Below are positions 4,300 to 18,118 of a stretch of DNA of 20,074 nt, piece after piece. The position numbers and the translations under genes are program-made. The notes beneath the pieces are model-generated. The model saw only the letters and a list, made by a program, of their open reading frames with translations, was not told the DNA's origin and did not search any database. Every line of letters begins with the position of its first letter. Position 1 is the stretch's first letter. The DNA comes from a virus (lineage: Duplodnaviria; Heunggongvirae; Uroviricota; Caudoviricetes), in IMG/VR virus record IMGVR_UViG_2663763227_000012. The stretch is one strand, 5' to 3'.

Positions 4300-4391
4300 T
4301 TGTTTTAACCTCATGACAGATTTAAGGATGAACAAATCCCTGCCATTGTTGGCATATAAGAATGAAACCGGATATTTATTACGGAACTGTT

Positions 4392-4937: not shown

Positions 4938-4995
4938 AAAAAGGGCGGCAGAGCAGTCACGGAGTAAAACTGATACCGCCAAACGTCACCAGAAA
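4938..4995 (-). ncRNA. dicF: DicF small regulatory RNA (ftsZ-targeting sRNA)
   Basis: Reverse complement of 4938-4995 reads TTTCTGGTGACGTTTGGCGGTATCAGTTTTACTCCGTGACTGCTCTGCCGCCCTTTTT, the DicF sequence with its terminal GC stem and U-tail. Lies between ydfC and dicB as in Qin. Confidence 0.85.
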
Positions 4996-8248: not shown

Positions 8249-8671
8249 GTGGCAAAAGTTTTTACACAAGAAGAGCGGGAAAAAATTAAATGGCAGGTGG
8301 TGGAACTCGTGCGCCAGAGCGGCCGTGAGACGTTACGGCAACTGGAAGCTAAAACAGGTGCGACTAGATATCTGATGAGCGTTCTTGCCAGAGAGCTGGT
8401 AGCCAGTGGCGATGTATACAACTCCGGCTACGGGTTATTCCCCTCTGAACAGGCGCGTAAGGACTGGCAAAACGCCCGCAAAAAACTCTCGAGGGCAAAG
8501 GTGAAGAAACCTGCTGTGGTTGATCCGGACCTTATCTGGTCATCACCTGACGGAGAAATACGTCGCTACGACAGTCGCCTAAACATAATCTGTCGCGAGT
8601 GCCGGAAGAGCGAAGTTATGCAGCGCATACTGGCTTTCTATCAGGGTAATTTTCAGGACGTGGCGCAGTGA
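8249..8671 (+). CDS. Hypothetical prophage protein, possible HTH
   Basis: 140-aa ORF with GTG start at 8249 preceded by GGGGG. Segment ETLRQLEAKTGATRYLMSVLARELV looks HTH-like. Stop overlaps the next gene's GTG start (GTGA at 8668-8671). Confidence 0.5.
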   Translation: MAKVFTQEEREKIKWQVVELVRQSGRETLRQLEAKTGATRYLMSVLARELVASGDVYNSGYGLFPSEQARKDWQNARKKLSRAKVKKPAVVDPDLIWSSPDGEIRRYDSRLNIICRECRKSEVMQRILAFYQGNFQDVAQ

Positions 8672-9024
8672 GTGCACCGGCAACCATTCTTGATATGTGC
8701 TGTGGCAGCCGCATGTTCTGGTTCGATAAGTCTGACGAACGGGCGATATTCAGCGATATCAGAAAAGAAGGATACACATTACGCAATGGGAGACGCTTGA
8801 TTATCAGCCCTGACATTATCGCAGATTTTCGTGCATTATCATTTGCAGACGCATCTTTTTCGATGGTTGTATTAGACCCTCCGCATCTTGAGAGTGTTGG
8901 TGATAACGCCTGGATGGGAAAGAAATATGGACGGCTGAATAAAGATGCCTGGCGTGATGATTCGCGACAGAGATTTAAAGAAGCCTTTCGGGTGTTGAGG
9001 CCGCACGGCGTTCTGATTTTTTAA
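8668..9024 (+). CDS. N6-adenine DNA methyltransferase-like protein, short and probably truncated
   Basis: 118 aa with SAM motif I-like DMCCGS and motif IV DPPH (VVLDPPHL), plus a RVLRPHGVLIF strand typical of class I MTases. Too short for a complete MTase fold; the frame stays open 30 codons past the TAA at 9022-9024. Confidence 0.55.
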   Translation: MSAPATILDMCCGSRMFWFDKSDERAIFSDIRKEGYTLRNGRRLIISPDIIADFRALSFADASFSMVVLDPPHLESVGDNAWMGKKYGRLNKDAWRDDSRQRFKEAFRVLRPHGVLIF

Positions 9025-10137
9025 TGGAATGAAACGCAAATACCGGTAAGCCAGATTCTGGCACTGACAGACAGAAAACCTGTTATCTGTCAACGAACAG
9101 GGAAAAAACGATAAAACCCACTGGATTATTTTTATGAAAGAGGCATCCAGTGAGTAGATTCGTAAGGCTACAGATACGTATATCTGAATAATTAAATTCA
9201 GTTCTGTAAATAAAATTTAATCCTTAACCGGATGGATTTCTGCACCCTCAGAACATCAGGAGGCCGCCCGAAAGGGCGGTAGTGAAATGCGAAAGTTCAA
9301 AATTATTATTGAAACGGGAATAGCTGGTGGAGATTTTGAGGATGTATTCGAAGTGGACGATGACGCAACACCTGAGGAAATTCATGACGGAGCATAAGAA
9401 ATTTTCTTTAACTACTGCAATTACTCATACCACGAAATAAAAGACGATGAGGAAGAACAAAGTGGCTGATTTTTGTTCAGCTAAATATAACATCAGTTTT
9501 GAAGAGCGGGATGAACTATTAATGGACTATGGTGAGTTACGCGGTGGAAGTGCTGCTGATGTCGAATCCTAGCGTGATGACTATGAAGCGGGAAAAACTC
9601 CGGTCGAAGCATATTGTGATGAGTGGGGCGATGAATGAGCGAGATTAATTATCAGGAAGGGCATGAAACGGCGGGGCAAGCAAAACCAGTGGCATGGCGA
9701 TATCGCTACGTGAAAAAAGGCGTTACGGACTTTCAGGGGAAGTAGTGGTCTGGTGACTGGAAATATGTACCGAAAAAAGAGGATTGTAACGACAGGCCGA
9801 ACTATCAAATTCAGGCCTTATTCACTGCCTCACCAGTCCCAGTTACATCAGAAGAACTGGTTAAAGCTGTGCACTTTTATGAACAACTAAAACGCGAAAA
9901 TCCACCAACATCCGGCAACTAGATTAATGGATTAACTATGTCGGTTAAACGACCAGCCAACTGAAAAAGCGGAAACCTGATTACAGGTTGCCAGATAAGG
10001 CAATGAGCTACCTGGCGCGGAACGGACTGATAAGTATGGGGAATGTTTTACGATGAACCTTTAGACTAAAGAGTTTGTAACGCTATGTAAGTGATTTTTT
10101 CTGGTTTAGATATTTATATGTCCGGCCAAATTGAGGT
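9025..10137. other. AT-rich decayed accessory segment with several gene-like frames each broken by an in-frame stop
   Basis: 9288-9470 (MRKFKIIIETGIAGGDFEDVFEVDDDATPEEIHDGA-TAA-EIFFNYCNYSYHEIKDDEEEQSG), 9490-9637 (in-frame TAG at 9569-9571) and 9635-9921 (MSEINYQEGHETAGQAKPVAWRYRYVKKGVTDFQGK-TAG-WSGDWKYVPKKEDC...). No ORF over 60 aa on the plus strand. Confidence 0.4.
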
Positions 10138-10356: not shown

Positions 10357-10690
10357 ATACAGCGAACTCCATTGGTTTAGTTGGATATTTACTGTGCTGG
10401 ACAAAAACGGTTTGCGGGGAAATCTTAGTTAAGTAGAATGACTGCGGGTGCTTGAGGCTATCTGCCTCGGGCATGGACACCAACGGCAGATAGAGAAAAG
10501 CCCCAGTTAACATTACGCGTCCTGCAAGACGCTTAACATTAATCTGAGGCCAATTTCATGCTAGACACATGTAGGTTAGCCTCTTACGTGCCGAAAGGCA
10601 CGGAGAAGCAGGCTATTGTTAACACCAAGCTGTAATGTCCCCTTTGAACCATTCTAAAATGTCCCCAGACAATTCTCTGGGGGATTTTTC

Positions 10691-12004
10691 ATGATCAAAG
10701 AGACTGTTACGATGAGTCATAAGGAACTCCACCGACTTCAGATTATTCAGGAACAAGCTGCGGCACGCATTGGCATTTCTATTCGGCAGGTTAAACGTCT
10801 GGTGCAACGGTATAGAAATGAAGGGCCTTCTGGTCTGGTTTCCCACCGACGTGGAAAGCGTCCTAATAATTCCTTTTCTACTGAATTCAGAGCAACAGTA
10901 ATTTCACTCCTCAAAGGCCGTTACGCTGATTTTGGACCTACGTTTGCGTGCGAAAAATTGCGCGAGATACACGGTTTATCTTTATCCGTTGAAACTCTCA
11001 GAAAGTGGATGATAGAAGAGGGGTTATGGCGTGAACGCCGTCGTAAAATTGCCCGTATATATCAACGCCGCATGCGACGACCATCTTACGGTGAACTGAT
11101 CCAGATTGATGGCTCACCTCATGACTGGTTTGAAAATCGAGGCCCCAGATGTACACTGATCGTTTTCATTGATGATGCCACCAGTGCGTTGATGGCGTTG
11201 CGTTTTGTGCCTGCTGAAACAACCCGGGCTTACATGGAAACCCTCCGGGGTTACCTTAATGATCATGGCGTACCGCTCGCTCTCTACTCTGATAGACACA
11301 GTATATTCAGGGTAAATAACCCAGAGCGGGAAGGTGAGCTGACCCAGTTCACTCGTGCGATAAAGACACTGGGCATCGAGCCAATCCATGCCAACAGCCC
11401 GCAGGCAAAAGGGCGGGTAGAGCGCGCCAATCAGACACTACAGGACAGGCTGGTCAAAGAAATGCGGCTTCAGAATATCAGTGATATTGAAACAGCAAAT
11501 GCATGGTTGCCGACCTTTATTGAAGCCTATAACAACCGGTTCGCTACGTCGCCTCGTACTACTGATAATGCTCATCTTGATGTGCACCATTCTGAAGAGG
11601 AACTGGGTTATATCTTCAGCCTACAGGCGAAGCGCGTTCTGTCTAAAAATCTCACTTTCCAGTACAAAAGCAGTGCGTTTCAGGTACGCAGTGAGGGCCG
11701 GGGATATCGACTTAGGCATTCGGTTGTTACTGTATGCGAGAACTTTGACGGTGAAATTAACGTTCTGTATGACGGGAAAGCGCTGGGCTGGGAAAAGTAT
11801 GTTGATGGCCCGGAGCCTATACCACTGGATGATGAAAAGAGTGTCCATGAACGAGTGGATAATGCCCGTATTGATTTACGCTCAAAATACTATGTTAAAC
11901 CTAAAGCTGACCATCCCTGGCTTACGCGCCGAACGCAAAGTCATCAGCAAGTTAAGCCCCCGAAGTTACCTAAAAAGAAGCCTGATCCCGATAAAAAAGA
12001 TTGA
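10691..12004 (+). CDS. DDE transposase/integrase-core (rve) protein with N-terminal HTH, IS481/ISNCY-like
   Basis: 437-aa ORF: N-terminal HTH (IGISIRQVKRLVQRY), then an rve-type catalytic core (IQIDGSPHDW...TLIVFIDDATS...GRVERANQTLQD) and a basic C-terminal tail. Element boundaries not resolved. Confidence 0.8.
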   Translation: MIKETVTMSHKELHRLQIIQEQAAARIGISIRQVKRLVQRYRNEGPSGLVSHRRGKRPNNSFSTEFRATVISLLKGRYADFGPTFACEKLREIHGLSLSVETLRKWMIEEGLWRERRRKIARIYQRRMRRPSYGELIQIDGSPHDWFENRGPRCTLIVFIDDATSALMALRFVPAETTRAYMETLRGYLNDHGVPLALYSDRHSIFRVNNPEREGELTQFTRAIKTLGIEPIHANSPQAKGRVERANQTLQDRLVKEMRLQNISDIETANAWLPTFIEAYNNRFATSPRTTDNAHLDVHHSEEELGYIFSLQAKRVLSKNLTFQYKSSAFQVRSEGRGYRLRHSVVTVCENFDGEINVLYDGKALGWEKYVDGPEPIPLDDEKSVHERVDNARIDLRSKYYVKPKADHPWLTRRTQSHQQVKPPKLPKKKPDPDKKD

Positions 12005-17322: not shown

Positions 17323-17622
17323 AAAAATTCCTTAATACTTATAACTTGGCGCACTATACACACGTTCCTGAAGAAAGCTATAGTTTTTTGATGGGGTTGA
17401 AGATGGCTGGATGTCTAAAATAAACATTGCTTCATATGTTCAACTATGCGTTAATGATTGCGTCGGTTTGAAGAACAGACGATATACGAAGTAGTTTACT
17501 AAAGCAGTTCTCATTTCAGGTGTTATTCACTTATTCCTTCTTTGAGTCTCTCCAATTAAGTACGAAGTCGTTTCTGTTATGCAAACCATTTATGCCGAAA
17601 GGCTCAAGTTAAGGAATGTAGA

Positions 17623-17838
17623 ATGTCAAATAAAATGACTGGTTTAGTAAAATGGTTTAACGCTGATAAAGGTTTCGGCTTTATTTCTCCTGTTGATGGT
17701 AGTAAAGATGTGTTTGTGCATTTTTCTGCGATTCAGAATGATAATTATCGAACCTTATTTGAAGGTCAAAAGGTTACCTTCTCTATAGAGAGTGGTGCTA
17801 AAGGTCCTGCAGCAGCAAATGTCATCATTACTGATTAA
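17623..17838 (+). CDS. cspB: Cold-shock protein CspB
   Basis: 71-aa ORF ([71 protein letters not shown]) with RNP1/RNP2 motifs and a ~300-nt AT-rich upstream region typical of csp genes. Confidence 0.9.
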
Positions 17839-18118
17839 AATTCATCGCTCGTCTGTATACGATAACGAAGAAGGCTGATGCCTGAGTAGAGATACGGACA
17901 GAGTAGTGAATATTGGATCTCTTTAATAAAAAGTAAGGAGGTCCAATACATGAAACAATGGCTAGCATATTTGGCAAAATCTTAATCAGGAAAAGTATGC
18001 TAACCATTGTGGTGAAGTGCAGGTTTGCTGCATGAATAGTTTTACAGCAGAAGCTAACTGCTGGCATGGCAAAACAAAGTGCGTAAGTGGATGACTCCCA
18101 CAAAAAGCACCACAATCT

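Follow-up and report, generated by a model that had tools for sequence, protein, structure and literature searches.

A probable relic of a small class I SAM-dependent phage methyltransferase, interrupted by a nonsense codon and a frameshift, in a Qin-type prophage of Escherichia coli

Introduction

A (D/N/S)PPx motif at the end of strand beta4 marks methyltransferases that act on exocyclic or amide nitrogens: N6 of adenine and N4 of cytosine in DNA, m2G and m6A in RNA, and N5 of glutamine. Among the prophage-borne enzymes, PamA of the Staphylococcus aureus prophage mPhi11, an orphan methyltransferase of 141 aa with the motif NPPY, methylates GATC and has been described as Dam-homologous (PMC12435837). 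For the truncated "methylase" YfdM of the K-12 prophage CPS-53, a phenotype has been reported in a preprint (10.1101/413146); a link of the present locus to YfdM, prompted by an O157 copy that adjoins yfdR, was rejected: YfdM, YfdT and all of K-12 CPS-53 are non-homologous to the family treated here. The named members of this family (PHROG 954; PADLOC) comprise the putative methyltransferase of Listeria phage A118, Rorf161 of Lactobacillus phage phig1e, gp20 of Pectobacterium phage ZF40 and gp57 of Gordonia phage Pickett; no characterised member was found in the literature on DPPH, ZF40, Qin or orphan prophage methyltransferases, and neither a dedicated Pfam model nor a solved structure of the family was found.

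The present analysis deals with a truncated open reading frame (ORF) in a DNA stretch of 20,074 nucleotides (IMG/VR record IMGVR_UViG_2663763227_000012; this whole stretch is called the window in the following, and the relevant features are collected in Table 1). In all likelihood, this ORF is what remains of a small phage gene for a class I SAM-dependent amino-methyltransferase, a pseudogene without function.

Table 1. Features of the methyltransferase relic and its direct neighbours (positions refer to the window).
Feature	Position	Strand	Remarks
DUF977 family gene	8249..8671	+	upstream neighbour of the methyltransferase relic
Truncated ORF, 118 codons + TAA	8668..9024	+	GTG start; RefSeq WP_001310834.1
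Motif I, SAM-binding loop DMCCGS, residues 9-14	8692..8709	+	family consensus LD[MPA]CCGS
Motif IV DPPH, residues 70-73	8875..8886	+	invariant in 88 diverse relatives; end of strand beta4 (model)
Nonsense codon TAA for ancestral AAA (Lys119, 99% conserved)	9022..9024	+	T5/A3 homopolymer junction; inside beta5
Untranslated continuation, frame 0, WNETQIPVSQILALTDRKPVICQRT	9025..9099	+	homologous to residues 120-144 of intact relatives
GGG run, one G more than intact copies (GG)	9100..9102	+	+1 frameshift lesion
Ancestral C-terminus GKNDKTHWIIFMKEASSE, frame +1, stop TAG 9155-9157	9101..9157	+	would form strands beta6-beta7
DUF7167 gene, pseudogene with internal stop	9287..9469	+	downstream neighbour of the relic

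Results and Discussion

Prophage setting and neighbouring genes

Judged by its sequence, the window represents a Qin-type cryptic lambdoid prophage of E. coli, located beside rspAB; compared with the Qin-type prophage of strain ATCC 8739, its identity amounts to 99.7% over the whole length and to 100% in the methyltransferase region. Among the annotated genes are integrase, excisionase, exonuclease, ydfD, dicB, DicF, ydfABC, dicA and dicC, together with a gene resembling ydaT, one for replication, and the DUF977 gene and methyltransferase ORF; relBE, hokD, ydfU, an antiterminator, cspF/cspB and essD lie further along the prophage. The DicF sRNA (4943-4994, minus strand) and, in front of cspB, a 5' leader of the cspA thermoregulator type (17462-17854, plus strand) are expected elements of a Qin prophage.

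The GTG start of the methyltransferase ORF overlaps the stop codon of the DUF977 gene as GTGA, and the same gene order with the 4-nt overlap is present beside intact copies of the gene (06-00048, 55989). By means of this overlap, the methyltransferase gene is translationally coupled to the DUF977 gene within the early(-right) operon; it is therefore no "moron", a possibility raised in the sequence-only reading, in the sense of a gene equipped with a separate promoter and terminator. No restriction endonuclease gene adjoins the relic, the neighbours being the DUF977 and DUF7167 genes, and the methyltransferase gene is therefore classified as an orphan.

The downstream region is marked by decay: the DUF7167 pseudogene is followed by a frameshifted hypothetical gene (about 9635-10056), likewise a pseudogene, and by a transposase fragment. 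Compared with E. coli 55989 (L094 1698-2305), approximately 600 bp are missing from the window at 9157-9215; in 55989, the methyltransferase and DUF7167 genes are separated by this extra segment, in which two short genes (84 and 103 aa) are located. Between an AGGAG and the start codon ATG of the DUF7167 gene lies a GC-rich hairpin (GCCGCCC-GAAA-GGGCGG; 9263-9280, plus strand), which the O157 copy has as well; compared with shuffled sequence, no significant gain in folding energy was seen (z=-1.6). Further downstream, a match to the Rfam sok antitoxin (RF01794; 104 bits; 10446-10617, plus strand) adjoins an ISNCY/IS1202-family transposase ORF (10691-12004). An IS-disrupted hok/sok remnant seems to be present here: the match is not followed by an intact hok-like ORF, and the RefSeq record of ATCC 8739 carries no annotation at this place.

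Reconstruction of the ancestral reading frame

The truncated ORF is designated "class I SAM-dependent methyltransferase" in RefSeq, where it is still listed as a normal CDS for ATCC 8739 and many other genomes; the copy of strain GF31 is already recorded as a pseudogene ("frameshifted; internal stop"). The residues retained within the 118 aa comprise motif I, D30, P48, D53-F54, DPPH and R108; thus, the presence of motifs I and IV, as first read from the DNA alone, was confirmed. In protein as well as DNA alignments, the nonsense codon of the window is positioned opposite the lysine of a conserved block (LIF-K-WNETQ) of the intact homologues, with AAA as codon 119 in E. coli copies such as those of O157 and 55989.

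Beyond the nonsense codon, frame 0 of the window remains open for 29 sense codons (WNETQIPVSQILALTDRKPVICQRTGKKR) until a TAA at 9112-9114. An open run of this length is expected by chance with a probability of (61/64)^29 = about 0.25, roughly one in four; it nevertheless counts as real because codons 120-145 align with invariant or near-invariant columns of the intact homologues. In frame 0, the homology covers the 26 codons following the TAA (WNETQIPVSQILALTDRKPVI.QRTGK) up to a second lesion, an additional G, beyond which it continues in frame +1: the window reads ACA GGG AAA AAA CGA TAA, whereas intact copies read ACA GGA AAA AAC GAT AAA ACC CAC TGG. Owing to this G, the last three frame-0 codons (KKR) of the continuation lie outside the ancestral frame, and the relic extends over 8668-9157 (162 ancestral codons) instead of 8668-9114.

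The core of the sequence-only reading, i.e. that a longer orphan methyltransferase was cut short by a nonsense mutation, is borne out by these data: thousands of intact homologues of 157-167 aa run past codon 119, they possess Lys opposite the TAA (encoded by AAA in the E. coli copies), and the codons downstream of the stop have counterparts in them. As regards the reading frame, two details require correction. The continuation that had been counted as 30 open codons consists of 29 sense codons and is homologous except for the final KKR, which is out of the ancestral frame; the stop codon is real but accompanied by the extra G in the GGG run, which had been overlooked.

The arrangement of the two lesions also bears on programmed recoding, i.e. 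read-through of the stop combined with a +1 frameshift or transcriptional slippage at GGGAAAAAAC, by which a low level of full-length enzyme would be produced. The frameshift does adjoin an A6 run, and the downstream frames are open up to the ancestral stop; however, two independent low-efficiency events would be needed, UAA read-through among them, intact relatives need none at either site, and six invariant residues are replaced in the window copy as well. A recoding signal is not conserved, since the relatives carry AAA and GG at the two sites, and such an origin of full-length enzyme is regarded as extremely improbable.

Occurrence of the alleles in E. coli genomes

A 51-mer centred on the TAA was found in 475 of 5,426 complete E. 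coli genomes, in one chromosomal copy each, and the frameshift allele in 473 genomes, likewise as a single chromosomal copy. The AAA version of the 51-mer gave no match at full identity in the 5,426 genomes; its matches were confined to divergent copies in other prophages, mostly annotated as intact. The GAA version was without any match in the complete E. coli genomes, so that none of them has a sense codon at this site in the Qin background. An ENA protein of 133 aa (P0006), a 99% identical variant, has Glu (GAA) in place of the stop and terminates with the frameshifted ...GKKR.

Within the Qin background, the extra G is absent from one genome only, E. coli VE-V11-M (L013), which has GG at this site together with the TAA and the 118-aa product. 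The late changes S76 and S99 are common to this strain and the window, and GF31 lacks both of them but is frameshifted; in VE-V11-M, the G was therefore probably lost secondarily or dropped when the homopolymer was assembled. For the window lesions too, errors of sequencing or assembly in homopolymers might be considered, as both of them touch homopolymers (T6AA and GGGA6) and the VE-V11-M assembly is without the extra G; this explanation is, however, effectively refuted, with a practically negligible residual chance, by the same lesions in 473-475 independently sequenced complete genomes and in IMG/VR contigs. From this recurrence it follows that both lesions are older than the Qin lineage sampled here and do not stem from sequencing.

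Gene loss has also occurred elsewhere in the family. The O157:H7 copy carries independent stops: at codon 95, TGG has become TAG, and a further TAG, in codon 157, costs only the last few, poorly conserved residues. In Salmonella phage vB_SosS_Oslo (L006 2989-3366), the homologue is annotated with 125 aa and recovered by tblastn in two pieces, suggesting that the copy of this sequenced phage was broken independently as well. The identical AAA-to-TAA change at codon 119 is present in an IMG/VR provirus (L066, UViG 2548876869_000009, 4355-4357), for which the provirus call ends at the stop: of 1,563 bases aligned with the intact 55989 gene, this change is the only difference, and this divergent allele is 89% identical to the window copy. 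The repeated change at the T5/A3 junction could reflect a dislocation-type hotspot or a homopolymer read error; if AAA-to-TAA has arisen twice, a mutational hotspot or selection for gene loss in lysogens may be responsible.

Structural consequences of the truncation

An AlphaFold2 model was obtained for the intact relative P0001 from an alignment of 88 diverse sequences (pLDDT 94, pTM 0.88); an earlier model from 48 sequences of at least 71% identity was discarded (pLDDT 59). The modelled 162-aa protein is a bare, helix-poor, stripped-down class I methyltransferase core: strands beta1 (7-9) and beta2 (26-30) are followed by a hairpin (34-46) and by beta4 (64-69), which ends in DPPH; the C-terminal part consists of helices 82-87 and 95-109, beta5 (110-121), a short helix (127-131), beta6 (138-144) and beta7 (150-156). 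No target-recognition domain or other extra domain is present in the model, and the N-terminal extensions of some relatives are not conserved.

Codon 119 is located within beta5; the 118-aa product is thus deprived of the end of beta5 and of beta6 and beta7 of the seven-stranded sheet, and, according to the model, it cannot form the methyltransferase fold. No usable in-frame restart codon follows the TAA. The initial judgement that 118 aa are too short for a complete methyltransferase agrees with the position of the stop inside beta5 and the missing strands, even though the full-length enzyme of the parent family is itself unusually small.

Sequence decay after inactivation

When five further copies from E. 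coli and phages are compared, 11 synonymous and 14 non-synonymous changes are private to the Qin branch versus 12 synonymous and 5 non-synonymous ones in the intact L011 branch. Six replacements in the window copy (C39R, D40N, P58S, F69L, R76S and G102R) affect sites at which 48 enterobacterial relatives agree without exception (100% conservation). R76S and L99S are restricted to the sublineage of the window; as GF31 lacks them, they arose after inactivation. The pairwise dN/dS values are only moderately raised (0.16-0.27 against Qin versus 0.11-0.17 among the other copies), most of the divergence being older than the inactivation.

These data weigh against a functional 118-aa fragment, i.e. 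a SAM-binding or regulatory peptide kept by selection. The ORF is indeed intact and near-identical in about 475 genomes, is called as a CDS by RefSeq and retains motif I, D30, D53-F54 and DPPH; the near-identity, however, reflects recent shared ancestry and not constraint, R76S and L99S were introduced at invariant positions inside the ORF after its truncation, the product ends inside beta5 without beta6-beta7, and the surrounding genes are decaying too. In addition, no conserved short form exists in 80 viral loci: the short ORFs encountered there represent the same allele, one single-base variant of the intact gene, or an N-terminally shortened call (L087). A selected function of the fragment is accordingly considered very improbable, and the locus is an ordinary pseudogene amid decayed prophage genes, already annotated as such in some RefSeq records.

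Parent family and its substrate

For the repaired 162-aa sequence, a match over the full length was obtained with PHROG 954 "DNA methyltransferase" (E=6.7e-80, residues 5-161); its homologues number 6,694, of which the intact ones comprise 157-167 aa (closest: 88% identical, 162 aa), and its identity to proteins of phages across several bacterial phyla amounts to 45-65%. The intact relative P0001 matches the PADLOC model MTase_II PDLC03288 (E=2.4e-71) and also the oMTase model PDLC03730. As a member of the family is an uninterrupted ORF of about 155-167 aa and the window copy is interrupted by the TAA at codon 119 and the frameshift, the locus belongs to the PHROG 954 / PDLC03288 family by descent only, i.e. 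as a pseudogene.

The family comprises about 2,030 clusters at 50% identity and was detected by tblastn in 254 deposited phage genomes (37-65% identity), the hosts including Streptococcus, Vibrio, Acinetobacter, Porphyromonas, Listeria (A118), Gordonia, Lactobacillus (phig1e), Enterococcus and Staphylococcus pseudintermedius; a Halorubrum virus is represented as well. Its range thus covers enterobacterial, actinobacterial, Firmicute, Bacteroidetes and haloarchaeal viruses. Across 88 diverse members, D30, P48, D70-P71-P72-H73 and R108 are invariant, and K119, the stop in the window copy, is near-invariant. No partner gene is conserved across 80 viral loci, the largest neighbour cluster being DUF977 (10/80). 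In two unrelated phages, the small methyltransferase gene overlaps or abuts an annotated DNA methylase gene of far greater size: of 717 aa in ZF40 (L005 2992-5618) and of 525 aa in Gordonia phage Pickett (L007 1418-3468).

The DPPH at the end of beta4 suggests that the family consists of amino-methyltransferases: the motif is correctly placed, with His where (D/N/S)PP(Y/F/W) has Tyr, Phe or Trp. The more specific assignment as an N6-adenine or Dam-like enzyme, as first proposed, is not established. The Pfam matches of the query were all below threshold (Methyltransf_11 and N6_N4_Mtase only, the latter with 15.6 bits versus a cut-off of 26.7), a MethyltransfD12 or Dam match was not obtained, and the fold matches are those of a generic class I enzyme; among the 88 relatives, the generic Methyltransf_11 was recognised in 57 and N6_N4_Mtase in one. 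A PDB search with the single sequence gave no match, and a profile search gave weak generic matches only, with Trm11 as the best amino-methyltransferase (E=0.13, not significant); by profile and fold together, the best amino-methyltransferase matches are of the Trm11 / TrmN / Trm14 / RsmC type. For one identical intact protein (WP_001275729.1 of E. coli 55989), PGAP now gives two names, "class I SAM-dependent methyltransferase" and "TRM11 family methyltransferase".

The "DNA methyltransferase" label of the family is predictive. We would favour DNA as the ancestral target with somewhat better than even confidence; RNA appears markedly less probable, and some other substrate least so. That the family might not consist of sequence-specific DNA methyltransferases at all but of Trm11-like RNA or non-specific amino-methyltransferases, the Qin copy then being a dead example of an unrecognised phage function, is regarded as rather unlikely.

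Proposed history of the locus

The ancestral gene of 162 codons was disabled by two lesions that are fixed across the Qin lineage, the AAA-to-TAA change at codon 119 and the insertion of one G at 9100-9102, and replacements at otherwise invariant positions continued to build up after inactivation. The intact ancestor presumably bound SAM via motif I, D30 and D53-F54 and may have used the invariant DPPH to methylate an exocyclic amino nitrogen; its likeliest target would have been a base in DNA, whereby the phage DNA could have been protected from restriction. An anti-restriction or epigenetic role of the ancestor is plausible.

For annotation practice, the CDS WP_001310834.1 of hundreds of E. 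coli genomes ought to be regarded as a pseudogene and not be listed as an active enzyme in methylome and restriction-modification inventories. The parent family is modestly interesting as a minimal (about 155 aa), very widespread phage amino-methyltransferase, with its substrate as the one point of mild novelty.

Comparison with known systems

The nearest intact counterpart is the 162-aa copy of E. coli 55989 (WP_001275729.1), which resembles the window copy in the GTG start, the 4-nt overlap, the succession of DUF977, methyltransferase and, later, DUF7167 genes, and the presence of motifs I and IV, at a DNA identity of 88%. Unlike the window copy, the intact E. coli copies possess AAA at codon 119, GG instead of GGG, and C39, D40, P58, F69 and G102; residue 76 is Cys in 55989, Arg in the other intact copies and Ser in the window. 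With respect to the PHROG 954 / PDLC03288 family, the repaired window sequence spans the whole profile, whereas the window copy itself is broken.

The RNA amino-methyltransferases Trm11, TrmN, Trm14 and RsmC share the class I fold and a (D/N)PPx-type motif at the end of beta4 with the family; the Trm11 family differs from the window relic in its N-terminal THUMP RNA-binding domain, which the relic lacks, motif I starting already from residue 8. PamA, compared here by its description, is similar to the family in being very small, prophage-borne and orphan, with an xPPx motif near residue 65-70, but it deviates by its NPPY and its Dam homology from the family with its DPPH and without a Dam-family Pfam match; S. 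aureus phages were found neither in the organism and host tallies of the family nor among the tblastn matches listed. As PamA is active with only 141 aa, the small size alone is no argument against a DNA target of the intact family.
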